Of a stretch of 59,150 bases of DNA, positions 640 through 59,150 are shown piece after piece. Every line of letters begins with the position of its first letter. Positions within the stretch are counted from its first letter, which is position 1. This DNA comes from SAR324 cluster bacterium (lineage in GTDB: Bacteria; SAR324; XYD2-FULL-50-16): assembly GCA_028280735.1 (NCBI GenBank), contig JANQLH010000170.1:1-59150 (forward strand), written 5' to 3'. A program made the translations under genes and the position numbers. Under the pieces are notes generated by a model. The model ran no database searches and had not been told where the DNA came from. It was given only the letters and a program-made list of their open reading frames with translations.

Positions 640-728
640 GTATTATTTACCCGTATCTTCACAAGTCGTTCATTTATCTGTTCAGATATGATCTTTGATA
701 AACCATGGATTGACCTATCCAGCGCTTG

Positions 729-748: not shown

Positions 749-778
749 ATTTCCGGTTTGATTAACCATGGAGACTTT

Positions 779-1012: not shown

Positions 1013-1015
1013 AAG

Positions 1016-6579: not shown

Positions 6580-7554
6580 ATGAAGGAGAACGTCGTGGTA
6601 AAACCTTTGGTTTTCATGTTTTCAGGGCAAGGCTCCCAGTACTATCACATGGGAAAAGAACTATTTGAAGAGAATGAACTGTTTAGAAAATGGCTACAAG
6701 AGTTTGATACTATCATCACTGATATCTATGGAAAATCCCCATTAGAATTGATTTATCATCCAAATAAAAACAAGGGTGATGATTTTTCTTCAACGGTTGA
6801 ATCCAGTCTTGCAATTATTGTAATTGAATTGGCAATGACCAAACTGTTAATGGAATATGGTATTAATCCCGACTATTTATTGGGAGCCAGCCTTGGAGAG
6901 GTAACTTCCGCAATTATCGCTGAAACCAGCGACTTAAATGATACTCTTACTTATCTGATCAATCGCTTGGAATACTTTGAAGGTCATTGTGGAAAAGGTA
7001 AAATGATCGGTATTTTGGACAATCCCACCATCTATGATTCAACACCTATCTTGAGGGAAACCAGTGAAATTGCCGCAGTCAATTTCGATTCCCATTTTGT
7101 TATATCGTGCCGGGATCATCATGTAGAGCCCATTGAGGAGTATTTAAAGACGCAAAATATCGTCTTTCAGACCCTACCGGTTTCAATCGCCTTCCATTCT
7201 TCCGCGATAGACGTTGCCAAAGCACACTGCCTGAATGAAGCAGGTGACATTTCCCTGAAACCGCCAAAAATCAAGTTTGTCTCCAGTACTCATGCCAGGC
7301 AAATCGACCGCCTTAAAAGTGATTATTTTTGGGATGTCTTTCGGCAACCTATTCAATTTCAAAAAACCATTCAAAACATGGAAGCATCAGGCAACTTTGT
7401 TTACATCGATTTGGGCCCTGCAGGGACCTTAGCTAATTTCGTCAAATATAATTTAAAAAAGAACACGAGTTCTGCAGTATTTCCAATTTTAAATCCCTTT
7501 GGACAGGACGTGAAAAACCTTGAAAGACTTCAGCAGTTCATACTTACAAACTGA
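6580..7554 (+). CDS. Discrete acyltransferase-like protein (trans-AT or AT-like acyl hydrolase), GASLGE variant
   Basis: The 324-aa product has FMFSGQGSQYYHMG (GQGSQ motif), a GASLGEVTSAI nucleophile elbow with Ala in place of the usual His, an Arg 25 residues after the Ser, and SIAFHSS. There is an alternative in-frame GTG start at 6595, 6 nt after AAGGAG. Confidence 0.85.
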   Translation: MKENVVVKPLVFMFSGQGSQYYHMGKELFEENELFRKWLQEFDTIITDIYGKSPLELIYHPNKNKGDDFSSTVESSLAIIVIELAMTKLLMEYGINPDYLLGASLGEVTSAIIAETSDLNDTLTYLINRLEYFEGHCGKGKMIGILDNPTIYDSTPILRETSEIAAVNFDSHFVISCRDHHVEPIEEYLKTQNIVFQTLPVSIAFHSSAIDVAKAHCLNEAGDISLKPPKIKFVSSTHARQIDRLKSDYFWDVFRQPIQFQKTIQNMEASGNFVYIDLGPAGTLANFVKYNLKKNTSSAVFPILNPFGQDVKNLERLQQFILTN

Positions 7555-7570
7555 TATCAACGGAGAAAAA

Positions 7571-8773
7571 ATGAAAGCTTATATATTCCCGGGACAAGGT
7601 TCACAGGTTAAAGGCATGGGAGGTGATCTCTTTGATGAATTTGAAGATCTCACCCAAAAAGCCGATGAGATTTTGGATTATTCCATAAAAAAGCTTTGTC
7701 TGGAAAATCCCGACAGAAAACTTAAGCAAACTCAATTCACACAACCTGCTCTTTATGTAGTCAATGCTTTGACCTATTTAAAAAAAGTTAAAGACGGTGA
7801 AACAATCCCGGATTTTGTAGCCGGACATAGCCTCGGAGAATACAATGCTCTTCTGGCAGCAAACGCTTATGATTTTGAAACCGGGTTGAAACTGGTGAAA
7901 AAAAGGGGGGATTTGATGAGCAGGGCTTCAGGCGGAGCAATGGCAGCTGTGCTCGGTTTGACTGAAGAAGAAACAAAAAACGTCCTGCAAACGGCTAACC
8001 TGGACAGCATTGATATTGCAAATTTGAATGCCCTAACACAAATAGTTATCTCAGGCACCCGGGAAGATATTGAAAAAGCGCAACCTGTTTTTGAAAAAGA
8101 GGATGCGACCTACATACCCTTAAATGTTAGTGCAGCTTTTCATTCCAGATACATGCAAAACGCCAGGGACGAATTTGAAGACTACTTAAAAGAGTTCACC
8201 TTCCAGGAGCTGAACATTCCGGTAATATCAAATGTTACTGCAACACCCTATCAACAAGGCGATATTGTTCAAAACCTGGCCGAACAATTAAGATCTTCGG
8301 TACGATGGTCTGACAGCGTGCAATATATGCTGGCCCGGGGAGTCACAGATTTTGAGGAATTGGGCCCGGGCGATGTATTGACAAAGCTGGTAACCAGAAT
8401 CAAATCGGATGAACCTCCCCAGACTGCCAGCACTAGAGATGAAAACACCGAAAAGAGCTTGGGAGCAGATGAAAATACCGTACAATCCGAAGAATCGCAG
8501 ATCAACAAACGGGATACTACCAAAAAAAATGTTGACGATGTCGATTCTGAAGAAGCAGGAAGAGCAGCCTACAAAAAAAGAATTGAAGCCGTACACCATC
8601 AAATTGCAGAATGGAATCAAAACCATCCTATTGGCACCAAAGTGACCTGCGATGGTTTTGAAGATCAATTGCAGACAAGAACGGAAGCTATGATGTTGTT
8701 TGGTCACAGGGCAGCAATATATATGGAAGGCTACAACGGCTATTTCGCTCTGGACGACATTTCACCCGGGTAA
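7571..8773 (+). CDS. Discrete malonyl-CoA:ACP acyltransferase (FabD-like trans-AT) with a C-terminal extension
   Basis: ATG 7571 is preceded by GGAGAAAAA (the track ORF starts upstream at 7520). Motifs are IFPGQGSQVKGMG, GHSLGEYNALLAA, an Arg at +25 (KKRG, the FabD R117 position) and SAAFHSRYM. After the AT core (~8400) come a ~55-aa acidic/polar linker and a ~65-aa tail. Confidence 0.9.
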   Translation: MKAYIFPGQGSQVKGMGGDLFDEFEDLTQKADEILDYSIKKLCLENPDRKLKQTQFTQPALYVVNALTYLKKVKDGETIPDFVAGHSLGEYNALLAANAYDFETGLKLVKKRGDLMSRASGGAMAAVLGLTEEETKNVLQTANLDSIDIANLNALTQIVISGTREDIEKAQPVFEKEDATYIPLNVSAAFHSRYMQNARDEFEDYLKEFTFQELNIPVISNVTATPYQQGDIVQNLAEQLRSSVRWSDSVQYMLARGVTDFEELGPGDVLTKLVTRIKSDEPPQTASTRDENTEKSLGADENTVQSEESQINKRDTTKKNVDDVDSEEAGRAAYKKRIEAVHHQIAEWNQNHPIGTKVTCDGFEDQLQTRTEAMMLFGHRAAIYMEGYNGYFALDDISPG

Positions 8774-38075: not shown

Positions 38076-41000
38076 TATCCGGACTTGAAGAGATTTTCAA
38101 ACAGACAGCCAAACGTGATTTAACAGTTGAACAAGCGCTATCACTAATTCAATCGTTAGAGAAAAAAAGTGGTCTCGTAACCGATGACAGGTTATCTCCG
38201 CTCAATTCCGACGAGAATACACTTGTAAACCACACTTTCTCTTATGACGATGATTATTTGAAAGACCACCTGGTATTTGGTCGACAGACCTTGCTTGGTA
38301 TCACTTACTGCAGCTTAGCCATCGAGGCAGCTAAAATGCTATCGCCAAAGGGTAAGGTGTCATCTATCGATAAACTCTTTTTTAAACAACCGGTTGTTTT
38401 TGAAAAAGATGAACAGATAGCAATCAAAATTAAGCTGGAAAACAGCGGAGACCAACCTGCCTTTCATGTAAGCGGCGTTAACCAGGCACAGTCGACGACG
38501 ATTGAAGCAGCCTCCGGTGTCTACAATTTCTTAACACCCTCTAAACCACTTGTTAAAAGGCTGAATTTAAAAGACATCGCAAAGAATTTCAGCCAGATTC
38601 AAACCTTTGAGGAAATCTACCATCGAAACCAACATGAGTCTGTAATCATCGGCCCCACTCTGCAGACTATCAAGTCAGTAGCAACAGGAAATCGGGAAGT
38701 CCTGGCGGAGTTGGTGCTAAAACGCGATCAACCGCTCTTTAACTATGATCCGGGTTTAATCAATGGAGCGATCATGAGCAGTGTTTATGGGATGGAGGGG
38801 ATGCTTTCCAGGGAGCTGTTTCTTCCGATCATGATCAAAAAAATCCGCTTTGGTCAGCCTCTGCCAAACTACTGCAGAGCTTACTCAAAAATCGTAAAAC
38901 TTAAAGAAGAGGTCCTGATTGTCGATATTACCCTCACCGATAAACATGGAGAGGTTCTGCTGTCTTTGGAAGAATTTACTTTGAAAAAAGTGAGGTCAGC
39001 CAATGACTTTGGCAAAGAAGAAAAGAAGAAATCCGCAATAAAATCAATGCCGGTAGTTAATAAAACATCGTCATCCAATATTGTGGATCGATTAAAAAGC
39101 TATTTGGTGGAAAACATCAAAACCTTGCTTGATGACTCAAATCAAGAGATCGAAGATTCAATCAATTTCATGGAATTGGGCCTGAGTTCAGCGAATCTGG
39201 TGTCTTTTACCGAACAGATGGAAACTGAGCTACAGTTGGATCTATTTCCGACCTTGTTTTTTGAATACCAAAATATTGCTGAACTGGCTGAATTTCTCAG
39301 AACTGAGCATCAAGACAAAATCAAAGCCTACTTTAAAGATACCCCTCCGACGTTGGAAAACCCTGACAGAGAGGAAACAGAGGTTGACAGCAACCAGGCG
39401 ATTTCTTCTCAAACAGTCGAGCAGGTTTTTGCTGATAAAAAATCAACACAAAGATCGAGTGGGATTCTTGCCAGTTCTCCTGCACCACTTGACAAGATTT
39501 CTGAAAATGAAATCGCTATCATTGGGATGGCCGGAGTTTTCCCACGGTCAGACAGCACAGAGGAATTTTGGGAAAACCTGTTGAAGGGAACCAATCTCAT
39601 TGAGGAAATCCCCGAAGATCATTTCGATTTTCGTCCCTGGTACGACCCTGAGCCGGATAAAAAAGACAAAATGTATTGCAAATGGGGCAGCTTTATCAAC
39701 AACGTCGATAAATTTGATGCGCCATTTTTCAACATTTCCCGGCGGGAAGCCCAACTCATGGACCCTCAAATGCGGCTTTTGCTGGAAGTGATCTATAAAA
39801 CGGCCGAAGATGCCGGATATGCTGCTAAAATCAGGGGGACCAATACCGGCATGTATGTCGGTGTTTGTTTTTATGATTATAAGCAGGAGATGGATCGTTT
39901 GGGAAAACCCATGGAGCCCCATGATGGCACCGGAAATTCACCTACAATGATGTCCAACCGGCCTTCCTTCTTTTTTGATTTAAAAGGACCAAGCTTGACG
40001 GTCGACACAGCCTGTTCCTCAACTCTGATTGCATTGCATCTTGCCTCTAAGGCTATTCTAAACAACGAATGTGAATCGGCTTTCGTAGCCGGGGCCAATC
40101 TCTTGCTCTGTTCCTGGCACTATCGATATTTCTGCAGCATCGGAGCCTTATCGCATACAGGTCGCAGCCATACCTTCGATCAAAGAGCTGATGGTTATGT
40201 TCCGGGGGAGACTGTGGCAGCAGTTTTACTGAAATCAAAATCAAGGGCCATTCAGGATAATGATCGTATCTACGCTGTAATTAAGGGATCAGCCATCAAC
40301 CATGGAGGAAATACACAATCAGTAACAGCGCCCAGCATCAAACAAGAGGCAATGGTTATTGAAAATGCCTGGCAAGACGCCGGAATTGATCCTGAAACCG
40401 TTAGCTACATCGAAGCCCACGGTACCGGGACTAAACTGGGTGATCCTGTGGAGGTCAGCGCGATGAAAAGAGCGTTTTCATCGCATACAAACAAAAAGGA
40501 TTTTTGCGCTATCGGTTCGGCCAAAGCTCATATTGGTCATGCCGAAGGATCAGCAGGCATAGCAGGATTAATCAAAGTTGTTTTATCACTCAGGAATAAA
40601 ACAATTCCTGCAATGCCACATTTTAGGAAGGTTAATCCCTACATAGAGATTGATGATTCCCCGCTGTATATCAATCCTCAGCCAATCGACTGGAAACCGC
40701 AAAATGGTCACATAAGAAGAGCCGGGATCAGTTCTTTTGGGTTTGGAGGCGCTTATGCCCATGTTGTTATAGAGGAATATCAAGAAAAGCCTGAAGAGAT
40801 CAAGCACAACGAACCGGTAGATCACCTGGTGGTGGTTTCTGCAAAAAATACTGAACGGTTAAATGCTTATTGCCATTCACTGGCGGAATTCCTCTCGGAA
40901 AAGCCAGTTAGAGCAACATCAGATGGCAGACTGCCGTCATCGATACCATTGGAGCAAATCGCATGGACGTTACAAAAGGGCCGTGAAGAGATGGAAGAAA

Positions 41001-44000
41001 GGCTGGCATTGATCGTTTCATCAAAAACCGAGCTACTTGAAGGACTGATTCGCTTTCAGGAACAACCGGTTTTAGAAGACAAAGAAAAGATTTTTTACTG
41101 CAATATCAAGAATAAGAAACTGAAATCTGCCATTAATGCATCCAATACATCAATTGAAATATTATATGAGCAAAAAAACCTCGAAGAACTGGCGAAGAGA
41201 TGGGTTACCGGATCGAAAATAAATTGGGATCTGGTCAGCGACACATCGGACTATAAACCGGTTTCTTTAGTAAGCTATCCATTTACAAGAAAAAGTTATT
41301 GGATACCGAAATTCGAAAAACCAGCCGTAGAATCAAACCCTGTCGAAAACAATCGGGAGATTTCAAATCATTTCTACCAGACAAATTGGAGAATTCAACC
41401 AATTGAATCTGTTCCCGCATCGCAATGGTTAACCGGCACGACCTTGGTTTTCGACACGGCAGATAATCACACTACAGCACTGAAAGAACGCCGGGAAGGC
41501 TCTGATGGCAGATGGATCTCGGTAACCGTTGGTGATCATTTTCAACAGCAAGCTTCGGACAGGTTTCAAATAAATCCACGAATTGCAGACAACTATACTA
41601 AGCTTCTGGACAACCTTAAACGGGAAAATAAAATCCCTGAAACCGTTATTTATCTTTGGAATTTATCCGCAAAAAATCCGGAAAAACCAAAAAAGACCAA
41701 TCAATACATGCTGCCCGCCAAGGACATTGCGGATATTGTGCTGCCCTTGTTTCATATCCTCAATTCGCTTAGCACCCTTAAACGTTTTCCGGTAAAACGA
41801 TTCATTCATTGTTTTTCAGGAAAAGACCAGCTTGACCCCTTCAGGGAATCGGTGGCCGGTTTTAGCAACTCTCTCAAGGCAATCTGGCCCGATTTTGTAT
41901 TTACCAATCTTAATCTGCTGCAAACTAATAAAACCACTACCCGGCTGGCGGATTTACTGCATAAGGAATGGGCCTGCAATCTTGAAAACATTTCCAGAGA
42001 AGTCCGTTATCAGGGTAATCAACGTCTGGTCCCTGTGACAGAACCACTGGCATGGAACAATAAAATCGAGGTCCAGGCCAAACCCGAAGATGTCTATGTA
42101 GTTACCGGAGGGCTGGGGGCGTTGGGATTGATTACCGCCCGGCATTTAGTCAAGCAACACAACTTAAAGGTAGCGCTGATCGGTCGCAGCAATCCAGATC
42201 CTGTAAAACGTGCATTTATCGCTGAACAAAAAGAGCAGGGTGCGTCAATAGACTACTTTCAAGCTGATGTCGTTGATCCAGTGGCATTGGAACGTTGTTT
42301 GGCCCGGGTCAGGTCTTCGTTTGGACCAATCAAGGGGATTATCCATGCCGCCGGGATAAATGACGGACGGTTGCTAAAAGATAAAACGGAAAAAGAGTTT
42401 TTAAATGCTTTAAATCCCAAAATTCAGGGATTGATAAACATTGACGAACTCACCAAAGATGATTCCCTGAATCATTTTGTTGTGTATGCTTCAATTGCTT
42501 CTTTACTCGGAGATTTTGGCCAATGTGATTATGCAGTTTCCAACCGGTTTTGCGATGCGTTTGGAGAGTTGAGAGAACAACAAAGAGAACAAGGTCTGCG
42601 CCAGGGAAAAACAACTATCATCGGCTGGCCACTCTGGAAAGACGGCGGAATGCATATGGATGCAAAAGCGGAAGCATTATTTTTAAATTCTTCCGGCATG
42701 AGCTACCTGGAGAGTGAAGAAGGATTGAAGATCCTTGATCAATCCCTGGCATGCTCCCTTACCCATCTATTCACCTTCAGAGGTGAAAAAGTCACTATTG
42801 ACAAACTGATGGCAGATGCCTTTAGCGGCAGAACACAGCTCTCCAAACCAAGTCCGGTGCGGAAATCTTCGCAAGTCTCAACCCCGGACAAAGATAGCAG
42901 GGACAAGATTCTGCGTGTCCGGATTAGAAAAATCGCAGCAGGGCTGCTTGATTTAAATGACGACGAACTCGACAGTGACGAATCGTTTGTCGATTATGGT
43001 TTTGATTCCATCATTTTAAAAGAATTCTCCGCCAGGCTTGGTTCCACCTTTGATATCGATATCTCCCCAACCTTATTCTTTAACCGTTCAACCATTAACG
43101 AACTTTGTGATTATTTAAATGAAGAATACCCTGGGCTGGCTCTGGATGAGAATAAAACAGAAATAAAACCAAAGCCGGCTTTCGAAACCTCCAAATCAAT
43201 CCCGCACCAGGAGACTGCTGCCAAGCCATCGGCCGAAGCTCCTTCCGAGGCGGTTGAGAGTGCTATAGCAGTGATCGGAATGAGCGCCAAATTTCCTAAA
43301 TCAAAAAATCTGAAGGAATTCTGGCGACATCTGGAAAACAACGAAGATCTCATCAGCATCATTCCTGAAGATCGGTGGGACTGGCGATCATTTTATAGTG
43401 GAAAAGATATAAAGCCCCATTTGTCCAACTCCAAATGGGGTGGATTTATTGACAATGTTGATACATTTGATGCCTCGTTCTTCAACATTTCTCCCAACGA
43501 AGCCGAGGTAATGGACCCACAGCATCGAGTGTTTCTCGAAACCTCATGGAAAGCCATTGAAGATGCCGGTTATAAGGTGTCAACATTCGAAAGTCGGAAG
43601 GTTGGTGTCTTTGCCGGAGTACAATTCAATGATTACAAGGATTTGATTTTAGAGAGTGGAGATTCGAGACCTCAAATTGGCACAGGCAACTCCCACGCGA
43701 TGCTGGTTAACAGGGTTTCCTATTTGTTGAATTTTAACGGACCCAGCGAAGCAATTGACACTGCCTGCTCCGGAAGTTTGGTGGCGATACATCGAGCCAA
43801 ACAGAGTCTACTCAGTGGCGAGTGTGATTTGGCTTTGGCCGGTGGTGTAAGTTTAATCGTTTCCTCAAAGCAGTTTGTCTATGCCAGCCAATTGGGGATG
43901 CTGTCCGTGGATGGACGCTGTAAAACCTTTGATAAAACTGCAAACGGCTTTGTCAAAGGGGAGGGTGTTGGTGTGTTATTGCTAAAACCCTTAAAAAAGG

Positions 44001-47000
44001 CCAGGGAAGATAATGATCACATTTATGCAGTTGTTAAGGGCAGTGCGGTCAATCATGGTGGAAAATCCAATTCTCTGACAGCACCTGACTCCGGTGCCCA
44101 GGCAGAGCTGATAAAAATGGCCCAAAAAGATGCAGGTATTGAAGCCTCTACAATCAGTTATATTGAAGCGCATGGGACGGGAACCGAACTGGGAGATCCC
44201 GTTGAAGTGGATGGTTTGCATCTGGCCTTTGCCTCAAGTTCGCAAAAATGCGCCCTGGGATCGGTAAAAACAAATATCGGTCATCTTGAACCGGCAGCAG
44301 GTATTGCAGGAGTTATAAAAACCGTGCTTAGCCTGAAGCATAAAAAGCTGACGGGCAATCCACATTTTAAAGACTTGAATCCCTATATAAAGTTAAGGGA
44401 TCGATTTGTTATCATTCAGAAAACCAAAGACTGGATCCGTCTGAAAAACAGCGATGGATCTGAAATACCCCTGAGAGCGGGTGTCAGTGCCTTTGGATTT
44501 GGAGGAGCCAATGCCCACATTGTCCTGGAAGAGTATGAACAATTACCGCATCGAAAACAGCCTGCCGGTTATGACTCGCACCTTATCCTGCTGTCGGCAA
44601 AGTCCGAGGAAAGCCTGACACGATATGCCGAGTACCTGAAAACCTGGTTACAGAATGTCAGTGCCGACAGGGAAGAATCGCACTCACTTGCGGATATCGC
44701 TTATACCCTGCAAGTCGGCAGAGAAGAGATGGCCTGCCGCCTGGTTATTGTTACTGAAAGTGTCAATGATCTGACGTTGAAACTGGAAAAATTCCAACCG
44801 GGAAAACAAGCGGCTGATGTTTATTTCAATTCAATCAAGGAGAATCAACCACTGGTTGCCGGCAACAGCTCATTGTCACAGTCAAATATAACCACTTTTA
44901 AAGATTCGACAAAAGCAGAGCAAAGGGTAATTGCCCAACATTGGGTATCAGGTCAAAGCTATGATTGGCAGCAGTTTTATCAAGATGAATCTCCCGGTCG
45001 AATCCCGCTGCCGACTTATCCTTTTGCGCCTGATCGTTATTGGATTGGGAACGGTCAGCCTAGCCTTCTCAGGGGACATGCAACATCATCAGCAGGATGG
45101 ACTGTTTCCCCCCCGGAGAACGGACTTTCGGCTAACATCCTGTTAACCGGACAAGAATTCTTTCTCAGGGACCATGTTATCGGAGGCAAAAAGGTGTTGC
45201 CGGGTGCAGCTTATATCGACCTGGTTTGCCGGACAGCAGAGCAACTAACGTCCCAATCTGTATCCAAAATTCGGAACTTATCCTGGATTCGAAAACTGGA
45301 AGTTGGGTCCGACACTCTCACCTTGAATGTCGAATTCTTTCCCCAACATGACAGCCTGGAATTTTCTGTAACATCACGTTCAAACACGCATGCCCGGGGC
45401 GAGCTGGTTTTAAATAAACCTGAAGCAACCAGCACTATTGACGATGACAGTTATGACATTCAATCGATCAAATCACGATGTATTCAAAAACTGGGCAATG
45501 AAGAGGTTTATCAATACTACGCCCGGGAGGGATTTGAATATGGGCCTGATTTTCAGCCAATCGAAACGGTCTATTTCAACGAAGCGGAAGCTTTATCCAG
45601 TCTTTTGGCGCCAATTGGGATTGATGAAAATCAGATGCTTTCTGCCTTGCTCGATGGTGCTTTCCAGACAATTATCGGGCTCCAGAACCATTCATCACAA
45701 CCTGCCAATAAGATTTATCTCCCTTTTGCTGTGGAGGAAATCAACTTTATCGATACGTTGCCAAATAGGTGTTTTGCTCACGTTTACCCGGATGCTGCGG
45801 AGGATAGTAAAAACGACGACCTGAAAATCTACCACCTTTCCTTAAATGACACAAACGGCAGACAGCTCATCAATATCAGAGGGCTAACCTTTAAGGCCCT
45901 GAATCAAGTAAAAAACTCCCAAATCAGCTATTACAGCAGTGAATGGAAAGAAGAGACTGTTACAGATTCTTCACCTTCCGAAGAGCCGGAAACACTGCTG
46001 CTATTCTGCCATGACCGAAAAACCGCGGAACCGATTGCAGAGCAATTTGTTGAAGTCGGCAACAACCAAAACAAAGTCATTTTTGTGAAAGCAGCGGACC
46101 GCTTTGATAAAGCCTCAGATAAGGAATATGCAATAAATCCGTCACATAAAGATGATTTCATATCGCTTTTTTCATCTCTTAAATTGGAGCAGTCGTTTCC
46201 CAGCAGAATTATTGTACTCTGGGATCACTCATTGGCCAGTGGTGCACATGGGGACTTGAAGATCATTAAAGCTCGCTCGTTTCCGGGTATGATCAACCTG
46301 ACACAGGCTATCATGGAATCGAAACCGACAGATCCGATTCATTTACTATACGGATACAATAAGACCATTGATTTCAAGGCTGGTCTGGCAATGGCAGGCT
46401 TTTTTAAAACACTGGCAAAAGAAAATCTCAATTTTCTCTATCGATCAGTCGGTCTCGAATTAAGCACCGATCAGATCACCAAACCAATCGACAAGGCAAA
46501 TGCAACAAAGCTGCTGAATGAATTGTTTAATGCCGGGAATTTTTCATTTGGTGTTGAGTATCGCGATCAAAGACGGTTGACAGCACATTACCGAACTCTG
46601 GAAACAGCATCGGCAAGTGAAATCAACGGTTTTTTGAAAACTGATGGTGTTTATTGGATTACCGGAGGTTTGGGAGGGATCGGCAAAAAACTGGCGACCT
46701 ATATCGCTGATCGCATAAAAGGCGTTATCATCATATCCGGCAGAACCGCTGCAGATGAATCAGCCGAAAGTTTTTTTCAGTCCATTTCTGCCAAAGGTTC
46801 CACGGTAAACTATATCCAATCTGATGTTGCTCACCTGGATCAAACAAAGAAACTGGTCGATAAGGTACTATCAGAATTTGATCGAATTGACGGGATTTTT
46901 CATTGTGCCGGTACCTTGAATGATTCCTTTGTTTTGAAAAAGAAAAGTGAGGAAATTACCAGGGTCCTGTCTCCCAAAATAGACGGTATTGAGGTTATTG

Positions 47001-50000
47001 ATGAAACAACCGGGACGCTGCCGTTGGATTTCCTGGTCCTGTTTTCATCCATATCCGCTGCCTTTGGCAATATTGGCCAGGCCGACTATGCGTTTGCAAA
47101 CGCGTATCTGGATAGTTTCGCACAATGGCGAAATGCATTGGTTTTAAAAGGAGAACGAAAAGGACAAACTATCTCTATCAACTGGCCATTTTGGCAGGGT
47201 GGAGGAATGGCGCTAAACGATCAAATTAAGTCCGGGTTGGCTCAAGCCGCGAAGTCTACTTCAATAACTGATTCCGAAGGTTTTGTGGCCCTGGAACATG
47301 CTTTTAAGCTGGGCCTGCCGCAGTTGATTGTTTGCAAGGGCCATCATATCGATGAATTGCATCCGCAGGTGAAACTTCAGGATGAGCAAGAGCAACAAGA
47401 TGAGACATCGGATCACCATCATCTGCTTTATCAAAAAACCGAAGGTTACCTGAAACAGGTTCTTTCAGCAGAAACCGGTGTCAAGGAATTTAACCTGAAG
47501 CCAAGTGAACCCCTGGAAAAGTACGGAATTGATTCGGTTGTGATTCTTGCTTTAAACAGAAGACTGGAAAAGGATTTTCAGGGATTATCCAAAACCCTGT
47601 TTTTTGAGTATCAGACTATTAATGAATTAACCGAATATTTCATAAACCATCAAACAAAACCCCTGCAACAAATTCTCAATTTTTCCGACGAAAAGTCCCC
47701 TATCGAAGCAGCGCCAGTCAGCAAAACGGCAACGATAGTTCAAAAAAAGCCGATCGCAATAAACAAGCCTTTGGACATCAAATCGCAGCTCCGTCAAGAC
47801 ATCGCCATTGTTGGTTTAAGTGGTCGTTATCCTCTGGCTGATGACCTGGACGAATTCTGGGAGAATCTCAAAACAGGTAAAGATTGCATTGTTGAGATTC
47901 CTGAAGAGCGATGGGATTACAGGGCTTTTTTTGATGAAGACAGGGATAAGATCGGCTTTTCCTACAGCAAGTGGGGTGGATTCATTAACGACGTGGATAA
48001 ATTTGATCCGCTTTTCTTTAATATATCCCCTCAGGAAGCCGAATTAATGGATCCACAGGAAAGACTGTTTCTGGAAACAGCTTGGACAGCTGTTGAAGAT
48101 GCAGGATTGTTGAAAACAGATCTATGGGGATCAAAAACCGGTGTTTATGTAGGCGTTATGTACGGTCAATATCAACTTTACTCAGCTGATAACCAGCCGG
48201 ATCATAATGAGCCGGTTTTGCTTTCCTCTTACAGTTCCATTGCCAATCGTGTTTCCTATTTCTTTAATTTAAGAGGACCCAGCCTGGCATTAGACAGCAT
48301 GTGTTCATCCTCCCTGACCTCCATCTGCCTTGCCTCTGATGCCTTGAAAAACAACGATATTGATCTTGCCATTGCCGGTGGCGTAAATGTCACCATTCAC
48401 CCCCATAAACACCTGTTTCTGAGCCAGGGACGATTTGCTTCCAGTGAAGGTCTATGCCGAAGTTTTGGCGAGGGTGGCGACGGTTATGTTCCCGGAGAGG
48501 GCGTTGGTGTGGTTTTGTTGAAACGACTGGATGATGCTGTTGCCAACAACGACAGTATCTATGGCATCATCCAAGGCTATGCATTGAATCATGGAGGAAA
48601 AACCAACGGCTATACTGTTCCTAATCCCAAAGCCCAAAGTGAGCTGATCAAAGAAGCCTGGGACAAAGCCGGTAGTAATCCCAAAACCATCGGATATCTG
48701 GAAGCCCATGGTACCGGAACATCCTTGGGAGATCCTGTTGAAATAACCGGTCTGCAGCTGGCCTTCCAACCTTTTAAGTTGGCAAAACAGTCTTGTCCCA
48801 TCGGTTCCGTAAAGTCCAATGTGGGACATCTGGAATCTGCCGCGGGGATCGTAGCACTCACAAAAGTCCTGCTTCAGATGAAATATGGGCAACTGGTCCC
48901 ATCTATTCACGCCGATACACTCAATCCAAATATCGATTTTGATAACTCATCGTTCTATGTCCAACAAACACAATCCCCCTGGACAACCGCCCATGACACA
49001 GAAGGGCAGCCAATTGCCAAACGAGCAGGTATCAGTTCTTTTGGTGCTGGTGGCGCCAATGCTCATTTGGTCGTTGAGGAGTATATTCAACCGCCGGCAC
49101 AAAACGAAAAGACCGATGACCAATTATCCCTTTTTGTTTTGTCTGCTCATAACAAAGAGCAACTCAAAAGTTATGTTTCCAGGTTTATCCGATTTTTAGA
49201 CAAAGTTGAGGTGCCTGCAAACAATGAAAATCTTCACAGTGGAAAAACTGATGACAAATCCATCACGTTGGCAAACATCACCTACACCTCCCAGGTTGGC
49301 AGAGAATCCTTTTCGCAGCGATTGTGCATCCTCTGTAATTCTATAGGTGAATTAAAACAAACACTGTCTGCTTATTCTCAAAATGAGTCCAACATCGACA
49401 ATCTCTACTATGGAGATACTGCCCCTCACAATAACAACATATCTACACTTTTATCCGGCCAACCGGGAAGGGATTTCATCCAAAGCATCATTCGATCCAA
49501 CGATTTGCAAAGACTGGCACAGGTGTGGACCACCGGCATGGATATAGACTGGTCAATGCTATACAAGCAGGTTATTCCGAATCGGATTAGCATGCCGACT
49601 TATCCTTTTGCCAAAGAAAGATACTGGGCTCCTAAAAATAACCCGGGCCCAAAGCAGACTAACCGCAACCGGACTTCTGATATGTTGCACCCCTTGTTGC
49701 ACCGGAATCAGTCTGATTTTTGGGCACAAACCTTCACCAGTAGCTTTAACGGTAAGGAGTTCTTTTTGTCCGATCATCGTATCCTGGACAAACCTATTTT
49801 ACCCGGTGCTGCATACTTAGAGATAGTAAGGGAAGCTGTTTTTAGATCCGCAAAGATCTCTTCTCAGGAGAAAAGCCTCAAATTGAGCGATGTTATCTGG
49901 CTGCAACCGTTTGTTGCTGATAAGCAATCACGACAATTGCACATTCTTCTGGAACCTCAGAAAACCGATAGTGTCCATTGTGAGATTTACAGCACTGAAG

Positions 50001-53000
50001 AGGCCGGCAACGGTGAGATGACAATCCATATGAAAGGAAAAGCTGTGATCACAGAACCGGAAGTGATGTTACAGCAAGATCTGGAAAAGCTGCGTAATCA
50101 ATGCTACAAACCGATCATCAAAAATTCGGAATGCTATCGCCGCTTTCAAACACTGGGAATGGTCTATGGGAAAGCTCACCAGGGGCTGGTAGAAGTGCAT
50201 AGGGGTGACCGGTTGATCATGGCACGCATTGTCCTGCCGCAACATTTGTTAGCAGAGTTTGATTGCTATTATTTGCATCCGACGATTATTGACTCGGTGT
50301 TGCAGGCGGCCATCGGATTCAACTGGGAAGAACAGTCGCAACATCCGATGCTTCCTTTCGCCTTCGAAGAAATGACCTTGTTTGGGGCTTGCAAACAAGA
50401 GATGTGGGCCGTTCTCACAAGAGAAGCTACCACTGACAAAGAGGATACCATTCTTAAATTTAACGCTGAATTGTATGATACAGAGGGTAACTGCCACGTT
50501 CTGCTAAAAGGATTGACTTGCAAGAGAAAAGAGGAAAAACATCCTGAACGATTATCTGACGAGTCAGCGAATAAAGCAATACTAGCACCGTCCTGGCAGA
50601 AAATAGATGCTGGCAGATCCGAGCCAGTCCCGGTGGATAACCAGCACCAGGTTGTTTTGTATGGTTTTGATTCTGACGATTATAAGCAACTGGAACGCGA
50701 TCTCCCATGGGCAGAACTGGAACGGGTTCCTCAATTGGTCGGTGAAACTGAAGAATGCTATCAATTGTTGGCAAACCGCCTCTTTAAGAAATTAAAAAGG
50801 CTGTTGTTAAACCATACAAGCAAAAAAGCACTGCTGCAGCTGCTCATCGCTGAAGAAGAATCAACAATGATGCTAGCCGGTCTCAGCGCTTTGCTGAAAT
50901 CAGCTCATTTGGAAAATCCCAATTTAAACACCCAGATATTGCTGCTAAACAGCAAAAGCAGTCCTACTCAACTAGTTGACACAATTAAACAATCAGCTGC
51001 TTTTCCCACCGAAACCGAAATTAAATATGAAAATGGATACTTATGGGGGAAAAGATATCTGCCAATTTCGAATCCCTCCCCAACTGCAGCACCAATTTGG
51101 AGGGAGGGAGCAGTTTATCTTATCACCGGTGGTGCCGGGGGAATAGGGCTGTTGGTCGCTTCAGAGATTGGGGAAAAAACCAACCGTGTCACACTGATCT
51201 TAACGGGACGATCCAAGCTTTCGAAGGCGCGGCAAGCCGCTATTGATGCAATTAAAGCCAAAGGTGCAGATGTTTATTATCGGCAAATGGATATCAGCGA
51301 CCCGGAGGCTGCCAAAAGATTGATTGTCGGTATTACTTCCGAATTCGGACAACTCAATGGGATTTTGCACTGTGCGGGGATTACTAATGATCAATTTATC
51401 GTCAAAAAAACTGCAGAAGATTTTAACCGTGTTTTACAACCAAAAACAAAAGGAACCATCAACATCGACCTGGCAAGTAAGCACCTGGATCTTGATTGTT
51501 TCATTCTCTTCTCTTCCACATCTGCTAACTTGGGAAACCCCGGTCAATCCGATTACGCCACTGCTAACGCTTTTCTTGATCACTTTGCCCACTATCGAGG
51601 GGAACTGGTAGCAAGACAAAAACGATCCGGATTCACCCTCTCCATCAACTGGCCTCTCTGGGAAGAAGGCGGTATGCAACTGGATAACGACCTCATAAAA
51701 AAATTAGAGGAAAAAACCGGAATGGTGCCCATGCCAACATCCGTTGCCTTTGATCTCTTGTATCAATCCATAAACGCAGGTAGACATCAGACGGTTGCTC
51801 TATATGGCAAAACAGAGCATCTGCTCATTTATTTCCAACCGCAATCGTCCCCCAACAGAGCTCAATTGGAAGCGATTCCCGAGACAAAAGACGAAAGTCC
51901 GAAAGTTGAGCGGGCGTTGAATAGAAATGTAATTTCTTACTTTAAGGATCTACTTTCTGAATATATCAAACTACCGGTTGAGCGCATTCAAGCCGACACT
52001 CCTTTTGATACTTATGGTGTTAACTCCATTATGATCAATAAAATGACCGATCAATTGGAGAAAACCTTCGGTCAACTGTCTAAAACGTTGTTTTTTGAGT
52101 ATAAGAATATTCGCGAGTTAGCCGGCTTTTTTCTGGAAAACCATCATGAAACACTTGGCCATGTCTTTTCCTCCAGTCTTAAAGATACTGCCCCATTTAT
52201 CAAAAAGCCGGAGTCACACACCAATTTATCAGGTTCCAAACAAAACCGTTTTCTGAATCGGGTTGCTTCCACCAAAGCGGCTGAAAAAGCCTTTGATACG
52301 GAAATAGCCATTGTCGGACTGGCCGGTCGGTATCCGGAAGCTGATAATCTTGAGGCATTCTGGAACAACCTGGAAAAGGGAATCGATTGCATTTCGGAAG
52401 TACCTGAAGACCGCTGGGATAAAGATCGATACTTTAGCCCTGAAAAGGGCATTCACGGAAAAACCTACAGCCGATGGGGCGGATTTCTGAATGATGTGGA
52501 TAAATTCGATCCGCTGTTTTTCAATATCTCGCCACGTGAAGCCGAGATTTTAGATCCCCAGGAAAGACTATTTCTGGAATGCGCTTATGATGTTATCTCA
52601 GACGCAGGATACACCCGCCATAATCTTGGAATTTCAGATACCTGCCCTGTGGGTGGTGATGTTGGTGTCTTTGTCGGCGTGATGTACGAAGAGTACCAAT
52701 TATTTGGCGCCCAGGAGCTTGAAAAAGGTAATCCCCTGGCGCTGCCAGGCAGTCCGTCTTCAATCGCAAACAGGGTATCTTATTTCTGCGATTTCAAAGG
52801 TCCGAGCATTGCTATCGATACCATGTGCTCTTCCTCGCTAACGTCGCTTCATATGGCCTGCAACAGCATCATTAATGAAGAGTGTTCCGAAGCCATTGCC
52901 GGCGGAGTTAATCTCTCGCTCCACCCCAGCAAATATCTTCTTTTAGGAAAGGCAAAATTCATGTCCAGCGATGGCCGCTGTAAAAGTTTTGGAGAAGGAG

Positions 53001-56000
53001 GAGATGGATATGTTCCCGGTGAAGGTGTGGGCGCTGTTCTATTGAAAAGAAAAAGCAAAGCCGTCGAAGATGGTGACCATATATATGGTATCATCAAGTC
53101 GAGCGCCATTAATCATGGCGGAAAAACCAACGGATACTCTGTACCCAGCCCTCAAGCGCAGGCACAAGTCATTGAAAATGCATTCCGTAAATCCGGTGTT
53201 CACCCCAGGTCAGTAAGCTACCTGGAAGCCCACGGAACAGGCACTGCCTTGGGTGATCCCATAGAGATCGAGGGATTGAGCAGAGTCTTCAAACAGACCA
53301 CAGGGGACAATCAATTCTGTGCAATCGGTTCTGTCAAATCCAATATCGGCCATTGTGAAAGCGCTGCCGGAATTGCGGGACTAACAAAAGTGTTACTTCA
53401 ATTAAAGCATAAAAAGCACGTACCTTCATTGCACACCAGTTTGTTAAATCAAAAAATCGACTGGAAACAAACGCCATTTGTCGTCCAGCAAAAAATGGAA
53501 GGCTGGCAGCAGCCCCAATTGACAATTAACGGCAAAGCAGAACTGTTTCCCAGAATCGCCGGAATATCCTCGTTCGGAGCGGGTGGGTCCAATGCTCATG
53601 TATTAATAGAAGAGCACGATGACAGTTCCATAACAAACAGATTCGATCCGAAAACTTATCCCCACCCGGCATTGGTCGTCCTATCTGCCAGAACCAGCGA
53701 ACAGCTTCAACTTCAGATTGAGCGCCTATCAACATATCTTCAAAACAACGAGCTTTCCCACCTGGATCTGTTTCGTATTGCTTACACACTTCAGGTCGGT
53801 CGTGAGCAAATGACAGAACGCGTTGCCTTTGCAGCAGCATCCTTGCGTCAAATGGAAGAAAAACTGGCAGCTTGCTTAAGCGGAACAGAACCCCCGGCAG
53901 ATGTTTTTTGGGGAAAAGCTCATGCTGATAATAATATCCAATTTGAGATTGATCCTGAAGAGTCATCACAACATGTCGTCAGGCAGTATCTGGCAACGTC
54001 AGATTATCAAAAGCTGTTGCAAAGTTGGACCAGGGGACTCCCAATCGATTGGCAACTATTGTATGACTATCAAACACCGCAACGTATCAGCTTACCCTCC
54101 TATCCATACTCACGTAAACGTTGTTGGTATGCCAGTGCTGAAGCAGCAACAGAACTACACCCGCTTTTTGTTAAGAACATCTCAATAGGTACGGAGCAGA
54201 AATTCTTGTCACGTTTCAATGGTGAAGAGTTTTTCCTGCAGGATCATCAGGTAAGAAATCAAAAAATCCTGCCTGGGGTAATATTTCTTGAGATGGCCAG
54301 GGCTGCAGGAAATTTGGCAACGGATCAACCCATCACTCAGGTAAAAGACATTGTTTTCAGGCAACAACTGGCCGTTGACAGCAAAGGCAAGGAAGTGGTT
54401 GTTGAATTGGATTCACAATCTGAAGATATGAATTTTGCGATCTGCTCCCACGAAGAAAATGACAACCAAACAGTTTATTGTAAAGGCGAGCTTGTTTTGG
54501 GCTCCCACCATAAGCCAACTGTCGGGAAACACAACATTCAAAAAATTCAAAACCGTTGCACTTCCAGCATTCCGGGAAAAGAATGTTACACCTTACTTGA
54601 GCAATCCGGTTTGAATTATGGCAAAAGCTTTCAAGCCATTCAAAGGCTGCATTACAACGAAACCGAAACACTTGCAGAACTTGCCCTGCCTTTTGAATCA
54701 AACAAGTATCTGCTGCCCCCGGGATTGTTGGATGCTGCCTTGCAAGCTTGTATGGGTTTATCGCTTTCACAGCAGATTGACAAAGAAAAGCAGTTATACC
54801 TGCCAATCGCCATTGACCGCGTAATCCTGCACCAAACTCCTCAATCCCATGGATTTGCTTATGTACGATACACTCCTGGTAGCGGCCCCGGCAAAAAAGC
54901 CATTAAATTCGATATCGATCTCCTGAATCAACAAGGGGATATTTGCATTTCACTGAAGCAATTTACAACGATGGCTACAACGAGCAAATCAAAAAACCAA
55001 TCCCACAAGTCCGTCATGAAGGGCATTCTAACGACAACACCTCAATGGTGCAACAAACCAATCACCAGACCGCAACAATTTAACACTGCGATACCATTAA
55101 CCCTGTTTATGGGAGGATTTAAGAAAGCCACTGTTTATGAGGTACGGAAGACATTTAAACATCTGACCGTATTCAATCTTCCCTGTGTTGCATCGGCGCA
55201 ACCGCAGGATTTAATCACAACCTTTCAGAGCCTCTATTCTCATATACGGTCAATTCTGGAACAAACACCAAAAACTGACCAACATATACTCTTTCTGGTA
55301 CCGAGTGATGCGAAAAAAAGATTGCACACTTTTGTCAGTGGCCTCCTTAAAACAGCGTTTCTAGAGCATTCGAAAATCAAAAGCAAAGTTGTCGAAGTGT
55401 ATTCGGAGATCCCTTCTGCCGTCTGCGACATAGTCAAACAGGAGCAGATAGTTGGGACCTTTGATGACTTTGATGTACGCTACCGTGATCACTCCCTGCG
55501 GGAAGTCATCCGGTTCCAAAAAACGGATCTCGCATCTCCTTCCGATGAACTGGCGGTCAGGGCAGGAGGTGTCTACTGGATAACCGGGGGATTAGGAGGT
55601 CTTGGAAAGATTTTCACCGAATATCTCGGTCAAAACAGTGAAGCAACCATCATTCTCAGTGGACGATCAAAAACAAATCCCTCCATTGAAGAGGAGCTGG
55701 AAAAGCTTAGACAAAATGACATCACTGTTTCCTATATCACCTGCGATGTTAGCCGGCTCGACGAAGTTGAATCCGCATACAATCAGATTAAAGCAGATTA
55801 TGGAAAACTCGACGGGATTATTCATGGCGCCGGAACCGTCCTGGACAGTTTTATTTTAAATAAGACTGAAGAAACTATTATCACAGTCCTAAATCCAAAA
55901 ATCAGAGGATTGATCAATATAGACACGGTTACCAGGAATGAAAATCTGGAATTTTTGATGCTGGTATCATCTGTTGCAGGGGCGCTGGGAAATATTGGCC

Positions 56001-59000
56001 AATGTGACTATGCCGCAGCCAATGCTTTTTTGGATACCTACGCTGACTATCGTCAAACCCTGGTGCAGGAAAAGCATCGCTTCGGCAAAACAATCAGTGT
56101 TAACTGGCCCTTATGGCAAGATGGTGGAATGCGCATCTCCAAAGAGGCCGAAGAAATGATGCGACAAAGTACAGGAATGATTCCCCTGGAAACTTTTCAA
56201 GGCATACAAATCTTGAATGAAATCCTTAACACCGGAACAAACCGTGTGATGGTGATGGCAGGAGATGTCACCCAAATTGAGCAACAACTGTTTTCAAGAT
56301 TAGACACCACCAAAACACGACCAGACCATAAAATAAAAACTCCGGAGTTTGACCATCAACAAGCCAAAAGCGACATTTTGCAACTGTTGAAACAAGATGT
56401 TTTCAGCATCCTCAAAGTCGAAACCGAAGAACTGGATAACCATACCAAGATCAACGAATATGGATTTGATTCAGTTTCGTTGACCGAATTTGCCGGCCTT
56501 TTAAACGACCAATATCAGCTGGAACTGACACCGGCAGATTTTTTTGAAATCGCAACGCTCGATAGAATCGCAGATTATGTATTGGAAAACCATCAGCCTC
56601 AGATCCCTCCATCTTCCTATTTATCTTCTGAAGAAACGACCATTGCGTCTCAGGTAGTCCCTGTCCGGCACTCTGCAGATGTGATTGAAAATCACCCGGA
56701 AACAGCCCAACAAGGACCAATAGCCATCATTGGAGTCAGTGGTAGGTTTCCCATGGCTGAGGATATAGATGATTTTTGGCAAAATCTGCTTGAAGGCAAA
56801 GACTGTATTGAAAATGTTCCCGTTGATCGTTGGGATTGGAAAGCGACCTTGGATAATCCCTCGGATGAAAACATACAAAGCGGCGTCAAATGGGGTGGAT
56901 TCATAAAGGGGATTGAAGAATTTGATCCAATATTCTTTGGTATATCCCCCAATGAGGCAGTGCTCATGGATCCCCAACAGCGATTGTTAATGATGTATGT
57001 CTGGAAAGCTGTTGAAGATGCCGGATACTCACCACAAAAGCTAGCCGGTTCGAAAACCGGTATCTTTGTTGCGACAGGAGCGACCGGCTATCAGCAACTG
57101 GTTTCTAAAGCAGGGCTTCCCACTGAAGGTTATACGTCCACCGGTTTAACGCCGTCTGTCGGCCCGAACCGGATGAGTTATTTTCTTGATATTCATGGTC
57201 CCAGTGAACCTATAGAAACAGCATGTTCTTCCTCATTGGTGGCTATTCACCGAGCCGTTGGAGCAATTGCCGACAAAAGCTGTGATTTGGCAATTGTGGG
57301 AGGAGTTAATACGATTGTTACCCCCGATGGCCACGTCGGTTTCAGCAAAGCAGGTATGCTTAGCAAAGAAGGACGTTGTAAAACGTTTTCCGACAAGGCT
57401 GATGGTTATGTGAGAGGTGAAGGTGTCGGTATGATTGTTTTGAAATCGCTAAAAGCTGCGGAGCTGGCACGGGATCAAATCTATGGTGTCATTCTATCCA
57501 CTGCCGAAAATCACGGTGGCAGGGCCAACTCGTTAACCGCTCCCAACCCGATTGCTCAAGCAGAACTGTTGAAAGAAGCATACACCAAAATTGGAATAGA
57601 TCCGACCACCATTGGCTACATTGAAACTCATGGCACCGGAACAAAAATAGGAGATCCGATCGAGATAAACGGTCTGAAATCCGCTTTTGAACAACTGGAT
57701 TGGCACACAAAGGACCAAAGAACAAACAATAAACATTGCGGCCTGGGATCGGTCAAAACGAACATTGGCCACCTGGAACTGTCAGCGGGGGTCGCCGGCG
57801 TCATTAAAGTCCTGCTCCAGCTAAAGCACAAAATCCTGGTAAAAAGCCTTCATTGTGACACCATTAATCCCTATATCAATCTGGAAGACAGTCCGTTTTA
57901 TATTGTCAATGAAAACCAGGAATGGAGACCTCCCCAAAACGCACAAGGGGCAATACTCCCACGTCGGGCCGGGATCAGTTCATTTGGTTTCGGTGGCACC
58001 AATGCTCACATTGTCGTTGAAGAATATATTTCCGAGGACCAACAACCAACAAAAATCAATCATAACAAAACACAAAGCGCAATCATCGTACTTTCCGCCA
58101 AAGACGCAGACCGATTGCGCGATCAAGCGTCACACTTTCTTAGACACGTGCAAAAGCAACAATACACCAGCACTGATCTGATGGACGTCGCATTTACTCT
58201 TCAAGTTGGTCGAGACGCCATGGAAGAACGATTGGCAATTATTGCCAACAATTCCCAACAACTGGAAGAGAAGCTCCAACATTTTCTCGAAAGGCACCAA
58301 GGGACTGATGGTCTATATTACGGCAGAGCCCAACAACAGTTACAGGACCAGCAGGAAGATATTGAAAAATGGATTCGAGAAAAAGAATTCAGCAAGTTAC
58401 TTCATAGCTGGGTCCAAGGGGCTGTCGTTGATTGGAATCTGCTTTATGACACCCCACTCCCACGCCGTATCAGCCTGCCAACATATCCGTTTGCCAGGGA
58501 GTTTTATTGGATAAAAGGTTCCGGATTGACTACCAATGATAATAAAATCGTTGCGACGAGCTCTTCCCCCGGTGCTCATCCACTTTTGCATCACAATACA
58601 TCCACCTTGCTGGAACAACGATTCAGCTCTCAATTCACCGGTCATGAGCCCTTTTTTAACGATCACATAATCAACAACAAAAAAGTACTTCCTGCAACAG
58701 CCTATCTTGAAATGGCAAGAGAAGCTATATCCCGGGCAGCCAGTGAGCTATATGATGATCAGGCACATATCCGCCTAAAAAACATCATGTGGATTCACCC
58801 GATTATAGCTTCCAACGCACCGGTAGTAGTCAACATTAATCTCAGGTACGAGGAAACAACGGAAGAAATTGCTTTCGAAATAGCGCAACAAGAGAGTTTA
58901 AGCCAGGTCATAAACTGCCGCGGAATTGCGTCCTTCAGCGAAGAGCCCCAAATCTCCACACTCGATTTGGAAGCGGTTAAACAACAGTGTCGGCAAAAGC

Positions 59001-59150: not shown

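Follow-up and report, generated by a model that had tools for sequence, protein, structure and literature searches.

A predicted trans-acyltransferase polyketide-peptide assembly line with a PanP-like decarboxylase gene on a SAR324 cluster contig

Genes and domains on the contig

We analyzed a stretch of DNA of 59,150 nucleotides (the window) that makes up the entire contig JANQLH010000170.1 of assembly GCA_028280735.1, from a SAR324 cluster bacterium. A preliminary description of the letters alone had reported three co-directional megasynthase open reading frames (ORFs) that form an orphan assembly line of the trans-acyltransferase (trans-AT) polyketide synthase (PKS) and non-ribosomal peptide synthetase (NRPS) type. 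The three ORFs were borne out, with 4284, 3358, and at least 7026 codons and no stop, and the window ends inside the third. Between ORF2 and ORF3 lies a 548-amino-acid gene that the description had missed; it encodes a PanP-like decarboxylase. We consider it likely that the window holds an intact and probably functional trans-AT PKS/NRPS hybrid cluster, with the contig ending inside the third megasynthase, and that its product would be a glycine-containing polyene amide. The features are listed in Table 1.

Table 1. Features of the window with their positions, strand, and the domain order or evidence for each. A, adenylation; ACP, acyl carrier protein; AT, acyltransferase; C, condensation; cMT, carbon methyltransferase; DH, dehydratase; EI, enoyl isomerase; KR, ketoreductase; KS, ketosynthase; PCP, peptidyl carrier protein; PLP, pyridoxal phosphate. 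A double slash marks a break between proteins.
Feature	Position	Strand	Domain order or evidence
AT1, PksD-type AT-like acyl hydrolase, 324 amino acids	6580-7554	+	Pfam Acyl_transf_1; motif GASLGE
AT2, malonyl-CoA:ACP transacylase, 417 amino acids	7520-8773	+	TIGR00128 fabD equivalog; motif GHSLGE
STAND (NACHT-type) NTPase with TPR-like C-terminus, 1109 amino acids	8890-12219	-	Pfam NACHT/AAA_22 at residues 427-599
ORF1, 4284 amino acids	13317-26171	+	KS1 - dead AT - DH1 - KR1 - ACP1 - KS2 - KR2 - cMT - ACP2 - KS3 - ACP3
Putative vestigial AT after KS1, ORF1 residues about 585-860	15069-15896	+	hhalign profile-profile comparison
cMT domain, module 2 (limits approximate)	22314-23516	+	Pfam Methyltransf_12/23, ORF1 residues 3203-3370
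ORF2, 3358 amino acids	26178-36254	+	C - A(Gly) - PCP - KS4 - KR3 - ACP4 - KS5 - DH2
C-A-PCP module, glycine-type A	26319-29498	+	Pfam Condensation, then AMP-binding, then PP-binding
Split module KS5-DH2 // EI-ACP5, no KR, decarboxylase gene in between	33465-39301	+	Motifs and PDB match
PanP-like PLP-dependent (group II) decarboxylase, 548 amino acids	36429-38075	+	Pfam Pyridoxal_deC
ORF3, at least 7026 amino acids, cut by contig end	38072-59150	+	EI - ACP5 - KS6 - KR4 - ACP6 - (KS-DH-KR-ACP) x3 - KS10 - DH7 (truncated)
Polyene-building stretch, KS7-9 complete KS-DH-KR-ACP modules plus KS10-DH7	43259-59149	+	DH4-6 and KR5-7 motifs
Weak integrase-N fragment	319-639		
VapB/MazE-VapC (PIN) toxin-antitoxin pair	695-1420		
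Hybrid 7TMR-DISM histidine kinase fused to receiver and LytTR domain	2643-5285		
ICMT-family methyltransferase	5260-5808		

The ORF listing and translation gave zero internal stops in ORF1 to ORF3 over about 14,670 codons, which at roughly 43% GC is far beyond chance. The three ORFs are tightly packed in the same direction and the gap between ORF1 and ORF2 is 6 bp; the database copy of ORF1 starts at 13329 and has 4280 amino acids. A Logan assembly of run SRR20820735 was 100% identical to the window over 26429-39365 (12.9 kb, with two gene junctions). Because this independent match spans the junction of ORF2, the decarboxylase gene, and ORF3, the arrangement is not an artefact of one program. 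An exact 50-mer of the right edge was absent from the genome contigs and metagenome contigs searched, and scans of the window for Rfam families, tRNAs, and promoters or terminators gave nothing of note.

Domains were mapped with Pfam and with phmmer and hidden Markov model searches seeded from the window's own domains. This yielded 10 KS, 7 KR, 7 DH-type, and 1 cMT domain, 1 C-A-PCP module, and 9 ACPs, the same tally as in the preliminary description. The serine is present in all 10 carrier domains (9 ACP and 1 PCP), the Cys-His-His triad is kept in 10 of 10 KS, and Pfam found RhiE-like or CurL-like linkers behind every KS. Both the HxxxGxxxxP and the DxxxQ motif are present in DH1, 2, 4, 5, and 6, and DH7 has its His motif ahead of the contig end. 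The KR domains have NADPH and Tyr motifs; the Asp of the LDD motif, which marks the B type, is found in KR1, 3, 5, 6, and 7, and KR4 is without it. B-type KR domains that act together with a DH usually lead to E double bonds. KS8 and KS9 form a pair at 56% identity that shares the MCSSS and GAGG motifs.

No match to Acyl_transf_1 at E <= 0.001 was found with Pfam in ORF1 to ORF3, but the region after KS1 is unusual. From KS1 to the end of the LPTYxF linker there are about 490 amino acids, compared to about 190 for the other KS domains, so that the linker ends about 300 amino acids later than normal. The extra sequence (about 330 amino acids) belongs to no Pfam family, and BLASTP of ORF1 residues 430-960 against AT1 and AT2 gave no similarity. 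Among 1.84 billion representative proteins we found more than 380 homologues of this insert, one of them from a Desulfobacteraceae metagenome-assembled genome (MAG). Nearly all lie directly after an N-terminal KS in a large PKS protein, at residues about 590-940. When a profile of 71 sequences from the insert family was compared with an AT profile in hhalign, the two matched with a probability of 95% (E 4e-8) over the nucleophile elbow. The GHSxGE of the AT elbow is replaced by ASKEGF in ORF1 and by a serine-less consensus across the insert family. A single-sequence AlphaFold model of the insert was too poor to use (mean predicted local distance difference test score 35.7). By its profile match, the insert is a dead AT remnant. 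The earlier claim that the megasynthases contain no functional integrated AT is upheld by the lack of a Pfam AT and by this AT-sized insert, which is without the GHSxG serine. The AT-remnant family is widespread, has no Pfam model, and should be useful to specialists.

The preliminary description had placed two free-standing AT genes immediately upstream of ORF1. AT2 is a malonyl transferase, scoring 369.6 bits against the TIGR00128 fabD model, which has a cutoff of 260.9. The best PDB match of AT1, by far, is PksD (8avz, E 5e-78) over residues 8-320; where AT1 reads GASLGE, PksD reads GSSLGE. AT-like proteins of this group were reportedly identified as proofreading acyl hydrolases by Jensen et al. 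in 2012. A PksD-like AT1 and a FabD-type AT2 make up the usual hydrolase-plus-AT pair of trans-AT clusters and not two ATs. The placement also needs to be corrected, as the order upstream is AT1, AT2, the 1109-amino-acid STAND gene on the reverse strand, a 1.1-kb spacer, and then ORF1. AT2 carries a C-terminal tail of about 120 amino acids (window 8408-8770, residues about 300-417) that falls in no Pfam family and is kept in the AT genes of the trans-AT loci L160, L179, and L184-L187; this tail could be a docking element.

Glycine module, split module, and order of units

Alignment of the A domain to PheA gave a code of about DPLQLGVVWK, with Asp235 kept; position 278 was set to Q by eye, using the conserved TP motif. 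The corresponding code for glycine is DILQLGLIWK. The best PDB matches of the A domain are LgrA residues 1236-1704, which we take to be the glycine-activating second module of linear gramicidin synthase, and 5u89 (DhbF), which we take to be the DhbF glycine module. The KS that follows, KS4, has as its best single-KS PDB match PksJ 4na1 (523 bits, compared to 457 for the next), presumably the KS after the bacillaene glycine module, which accepts a glycine-ended intermediate. KS1, compared with the PDB, showed no PksJ-type preference of this kind. Together, the Gly code, the LgrA- and DhbF-like A domain, and the PksJ-like KS4 support glycine and do not support beta-alanine. The visible A domain is thus well supported as a glycine-type domain from its residues, and the glycine unit of the preliminary description stands. 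Beta-alanine was considered as the substrate of this domain and rejected in view of the retained Asp235 and the Gly-like code.

One module is divided between ORF2 and ORF3. The DH-like domain at the N-terminus of ORF3 keeps the His of HxxxGxxxxP, with the Pro of that motif changed to Leu and the Asp of DxxxQ changed to Asn. Its best PDB match is 4u3v, the N-terminal enoyl isomerase of PksR (E 4e-14), and in the alignment 4u3v has the same Pro and Asp substitutions. We therefore read this domain as a bacillaene-type enoyl isomerase that would shift a double bond. A pyran synthase was rejected because 4u3v is well ahead of 5hqw (E 9e-9), presumably a pyran synthase. The unit had previously been described as isomerised or cyclised; the isomerised option agrees with the PksR match and the cyclised, pyran-forming option is dropped.

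Dehydrating bimodules have been divided into type A, with the order KS-KR-ACP-KS0 // DH-ACP, and type B, with the order KS-KR-ACP-KS // DH-ACP-KR (PMC8456789). The second KS of type A (KS0) is without the HGTGT histidine, and the proteins are divided directly behind it. In the window, KS5 keeps its Cys-His-His triad, the division lies behind the DH instead, and an EI is present as well, all of which depart from type A. With the triad intact and the break after the DH, KS4-KR3-ACP4-KS5-DH2 // EI-ACP5 fits neither type exactly. It may still work like a type A bimodule. The likeliest course is that DH2 would dehydrate the beta-hydroxy group set by the neighbouring KR, after which the EI would shift the double bond.

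The trans-AT hallmarks present in the window are the AT-less KS linkers, the split DH // EI-ACP module, the AT-like hydrolase, and the EI shift domain. The trans-AT PKS/NRPS identity given in the preliminary description is supported by the RhiE-type KS linkers, the lack of a working AT, the free-standing FabD equivalog, and the PksD-like hydrolase. In the assembly line that we propose, we infer that AT2 charges the nine ACPs with malonyl units, and AT1 would clear stalled acyl groups. Reading collinearly from ORF1, with collinearity assumed, the first unit would be an enoyl unit (KS1-DH-KR), followed by an alpha-methyl-beta-hydroxy unit (KS2-KR-cMT), a beta-keto or pass-through unit (KS3-ACP), and, as the fourth unit, glycine (C-A-PCP). 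The fifth would be a beta-hydroxy unit (KS4-KR), the sixth a dehydrated unit with its double bond moved to the beta,gamma position by the bacillaene-type EI (KS5-DH // EI-ACP), and the seventh again a beta-hydroxy unit (KS6-KR). From the eighth unit on, the line would add conjugated E-enoyl units, at least three and probably four or more. At least four consecutive enoyl units had been proposed; three are present as complete KS-DH-KR-ACP modules and the fourth is cut inside its DH. From this series of units, the expected product is a glycine-containing polyene amide that is probably linear. If expressed, the cluster should yield a polyene amide that has not been described before, either linear or cyclised, in a class that includes the antibiotics bacillaene and kirromycin.

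Several observations weigh against this reading of the line. Its end (the release domain and any further NRPS modules) and perhaps its start lie off the contig. No loading module can be seen ahead of the KS that opens ORF1, and the modules may therefore act in another order than that of the genes. KS3 is divergent, with HGSGN for HGTGT, GFGVFNSH in place of GFGGxNxH, and only 33-40% identity to the other KS domains, and KR2 is divergent too, with YAAAC for YAxAN. The chemistry of the KS5-DH // EI-ACP module is ambiguous, since it has no KR yet its KS has a full triad. Finally, KS10 falls outside the KS8/KS9 pair even though all three follow DH-KR modules. KS10 (56720-58000) is 45-48% identical to KS8 (47798-49054) and KS9 (52301-53590), and 50-53% identical to KS2 and KS4. 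Its divergence hints at an incoming intermediate other than a plain E-enoyl, or at a module that was recombined in.

One alternative is that ORF1 is not the first module, so that the line starts or continues on other contigs and the chain order given above is misread, while the enzymes themselves are real. The KS of ORF1 begins 14 residues from the start, with no loading ACP, GNAT, or A domain before it, and the stretch 12220-13316 contains no stand-alone ACP gene. At the other end the contig stops inside ORF3, and the decarboxylase is without a visible acceptor module. Trans-AT clusters are, in addition, often non-collinear at the gene level. However, some trans-AT synthases start straight with a KS, for example MmpD of mupirocin, and in the window ORF1 to ORF3 are co-directional, with the 6-bp gap between ORF1 and ORF2 and a decarboxylase stop codon that overlaps the start of ORF3. 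The end of ORF2 and the start of ORF3 are halves of one module (DH // EI-ACP), and KS4 behind the glycine module resembles the KS behind the PksJ glycine module. We consider a misread order rather unlikely and retain the collinear order that begins with ORF1.

The decarboxylase gene between ORF2 and ORF3

The gene that separates the two halves of the split module encodes a protein in which the HK motif with the PLP-lysine can be read from the sequence. Its stop codon (TGA) overlaps the start of ORF3, in the form ATGA, which implies co-transcription and translational coupling with ORF3. Against the NCBIfam model for PanP (TIGR03799), the protein scored 547.4 bits, under the cutoff of 606.1, with a match that covers model positions 4-522 of 522 (E 2.8e-164). 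As a comparison, five of five tested PanP homologues from Desulfobacterales reach the cutoff, with scores of 606.9-629.1 bits.

A genome scan recovered 77 homologous loci at about 50% identity, nearly all from Desulfobacterales and related MAGs. These relatives hint at a Desulfobacterales affinity of the organism, an indication that is biased by the exact-peptide method of the search. No KS was found within 10 kb of the PanP homologue at any of the 77 loci, which leads us to regard the decarboxylase in the window as a recruited paralogue. It is 45-53% identical to 69 full-length homologues, which among themselves have a median identity of 62%, and of 183 near-invariant columns it breaks 30, with many of the changes in residues 38-65. 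The homologue with the highest local identity (61%; locus L076, 10001-11581) has 8 stop codons in its given frame, probably caused by frameshift errors in a MAG built from long reads.

Because no module in the window is able to use the product of the decarboxylase, we infer its role from its position and from known pathways. Most likely, the enzyme would provide a decarboxylated amino acid, beta-alanine or one like it, to a step encoded off the contig. The amino acid could go to a terminal NRPS module, by analogy with kirromycin and janustatin, or could serve as a beta-amino-acid starter. In the kirromycin pathway, the beta-alanine used by KirB, the terminal NRPS, comes from KirD (PMC5818483), and in janustatin beta-alanine is incorporated by JanE, also a terminal NRPS (PMC11755721). 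For starters of polyene macrolactams, 3-methylaspartate is decarboxylated while bound to a carrier by the PLP enzyme VinO, and beta-glutamate is decarboxylated by IdnL3 (PMC11284099). We tentatively suggest that the PanP paralogue may be a dedicated beta-amino-acid enzyme, with either a free or a VinO-like carrier-bound substrate, and that the product may be a new polyene with both glycine and beta-alanine, made into a pyridone, tetramate, or macrolactam by the missing end of the line; the producer would then be an uncultivated bacterium of sediments, perhaps a sulfate reducer related to Desulfobacterales. We regard this as possible but not probable. A PLP-type aspartate decarboxylase in a trans-AT operon would point to a possible new route of beta-amino-acid supply. 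Two points count against this proposal. The score below the PanP cutoff and the 30 departures in 183 columns indicate that the substrate may not be aspartate, and the window has a single A domain, of the Gly type, with nothing visible that uses beta-alanine.

A simpler alternative is that the gene is a housekeeping panP that makes beta-alanine for coenzyme A and is unrelated to the polyketide. The end-to-end match to the PanP model agrees with this, as do the stand-alone PanP homologues that are widespread in Desulfobacterales. However, the gene stands between the halves of a split module, and its stop overlaps the start of ORF3. The score of 547 bits lies below the equivalog cutoff compared to 607-629 for the five homologues, and both the identity of 45-53% to 69 homologues with a mutual median of 62% and the changes at 30 of 183 near-invariant columns set this protein apart. 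We therefore judge the housekeeping alternative to be improbable and continue to favor a recruited paralogue.

Relatives of the cluster and known systems

Relatives of the megasynthases were sought in several collections. The protein-search lists for the tail of ORF3 and the head of ORF2 held only proteins under about 3000 amino acids (none above about 2950), so that long synthases may be hidden. Among the matches listed, the best identity was 41-43% for the ORF3 tail (1626 amino acids) and 37% for the ORF2 head (1700 amino acids). For ORF1 residues 510-930, the best non-self match was 33% among the 1.84 billion representatives, with proteins of any length included. When proteins are clustered at 90% identity, ORF1, ORF2, and the decarboxylase each stand alone. 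A scan with the ORF3 tail protein gave no relative in 185,579 species genomes and nothing above 36% in JGI metagenomes, and literature searches for trans-AT PKSs in Desulfobacterales yielded nothing relevant. The best ORF2 homologue (P0121, 37%) was rejected as an orthologous cluster because its PKS ends after that gene and it has no decarboxylase. All of the protein and contig searches, with best protein matches of 33-43%, are consistent with the earlier description of the cluster as an orphan. These data strongly suggest, but do not prove, that the cluster is an orphan, uncharacterized member of the familiar trans-AT PKS/NRPS class. Orphan trans-AT clusters are common in MAGs, and an incomplete cluster of a common kind opens no long-standing question alone.

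Only one syntenic relative was found, on a contig of a mud MAG (L160, JBFFHJ010000049.1). It encodes an acyl hydrolase (AH) with 56% identity, an AT with 63% identity that includes the tail, and a STAND protein with 49% identity. It was rejected as an orthologous cluster because only the AH-AT-STAND block is common to both; it has a beta-branching cassette and a trans-acting enoylreductase (trans-ER), and no ORF1-like gene alongside. The block is thus a shared accessory block and the pathways are not the same. The region L160 1-13757 contains a free-standing KS, a 3-hydroxy-3-methylglutaryl-CoA (HMG-CoA) synthase and an enoyl-CoA hydratase (ECH) for beta-branching, an 848-amino-acid protein without a Pfam family, a fused AH-AT, and the trans-ER; it is a second, different uncharacterized trans-AT system. 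The STAND NTPase in the window has no recognisable N-terminal or DNA-binding domain and gave weak matches only in PADLOC. Its homologue in L160 (13974-17288) is 49% identical over 1099 amino acids and has the same place beside the AH-AT pair. This second copy, in another MAG, suggests that the STAND gene may be functionally tied to trans-AT clusters, and it is perhaps a cluster-linked regulator rather than a defence gene.

It could be argued that the cluster belongs to a known compound family, either bacillaene-like or kirromycin/elfamycin-like, and only looks like an orphan. Several of its parts are of the bacillaene type (the PksD-like hydrolase, the PksN/PksR-like split module, the PksJ-like KS, and the polyene modules), and the discrete ATs, the polyene stretches, and the putative aspartate decarboxylase gene within the cluster follow the logic of kirromycin. 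Long characterized synthases could also have been missed in protein lists without entries above about 2950 amino acids. However, the window has no starter A-PCP and no HMG-CoA synthase/ECH cassette, and its domain order differs from that of bacillaene. KirD is an aspartate-alpha-decarboxylase of the PanD kind, unlike the PLP enzyme here. The identities of 41-43% for the ORF3 tail and 37% for the ORF2 head are at the level of unrelated trans-AT modules. The best non-self match of 33% for ORF1 residues 510-930, which came from a search without a length restriction, the singleton status of ORF1, ORF2, and the decarboxylase at 90%, and the ORF3-tail scans, which found no relative among 185,579 species genomes and only 36% matches in JGI metagenomes, also argue against a known family. 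We give this alternative little credence and treat the cluster as a likely orphan.

The left flank (window 1-6500) looks like a different genomic neighbourhood and not part of the cluster. Its GC content is 36-39%, compared to 42-46% in the PKS genes. The relatives of the histidine kinase in this flank are only 28-41% identical and come from many phyla, none of them close, and members of the VapC cluster carry both Bacteroidetes and Deltaproteobacteria labels. A decayed cluster or a chimeric assembly might be suspected from this shift in GC and from the origin of the window in a single contig, probably of a metagenome bin, but it is very improbable given about 14,670 codons without a stop or frameshift, catalytic motifs intact in nearly all domains, and an independent Logan contig that agrees without a difference across 12.9 kb and two gene junctions.

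Of the systems we compared, bacillaene (pks/bae, from Bacillus subtilis and B. velezensis) is likewise a trans-AT PKS/NRPS hybrid that makes a linear polyene amide. Both have a PksD-type hydrolase (8avz) beside a malonyl AT, a glycine module followed by a KS like that of PksJ (4na1), and a protein break within a module, with the DH at one end and the EI and ACP at the next start (4u3v). They differ in the order and number of modules. The window is without the hydroxy-acid starter module, the second amino acid, and the HMG-CoA-synthase beta-branching cassette of bacillaene, and has one cMT module, the dead AT after KS1, and the PanP-like decarboxylase instead. The identity of its megasynthases to database proteins is at most 43% among the matches listed. 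Dehydrating bimodules are listed for both bacillaene and kirromycin (PMC8456789).

Kirromycin, from Streptomyces collinus, is also made by a trans-AT PKS/NRPS, one in which the ATs are discrete and polyene stretches occur. Its cluster encodes an aspartate decarboxylase, KirD; the possible counterpart in the window is the PanP-like protein, which scores below the equivalog cutoff. The decarboxylase in the window is of the PLP-dependent PanP type and not of the KirD type, and the window is without cis-AT modules and without a second true AT. In the structure of kirromycin, the units around glycine differ from those read here. Release of kirromycin involves a Dieckmann cyclase that forms the pyridone (PMC5818483).

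The janustatin pathway (jan, Gynuella sunshinyii) also has a trans-AT PKS, with a terminal NRPS module that installs beta-alanine, and the paper that describes it makes no mention of a decarboxylase (PMC11755721). It differs in having eight PKS modules, a GNAT start, and a single terminal NRPS, with no internal glycine module. In the vicenistatin and incednine pathways, PLP decarboxylases (VinO and IdnL3) make a beta-amino acid for a polyene-forming PKS (PMC11284099). These are cis-AT PKSs of actinomycetes that depend on a transfer AT, a free ACP, and dedicated adenylation enzymes; the window shows none of the three. Stand-alone PanP (TIGR03799), for its part, shares with the decarboxylase described here an end-to-end match and the PLP-lysine motif; the window copy differs in that it falls below the cutoff, is an outlier to the 69 Desulfobacterales homologues, and lies inside a PKS operon.

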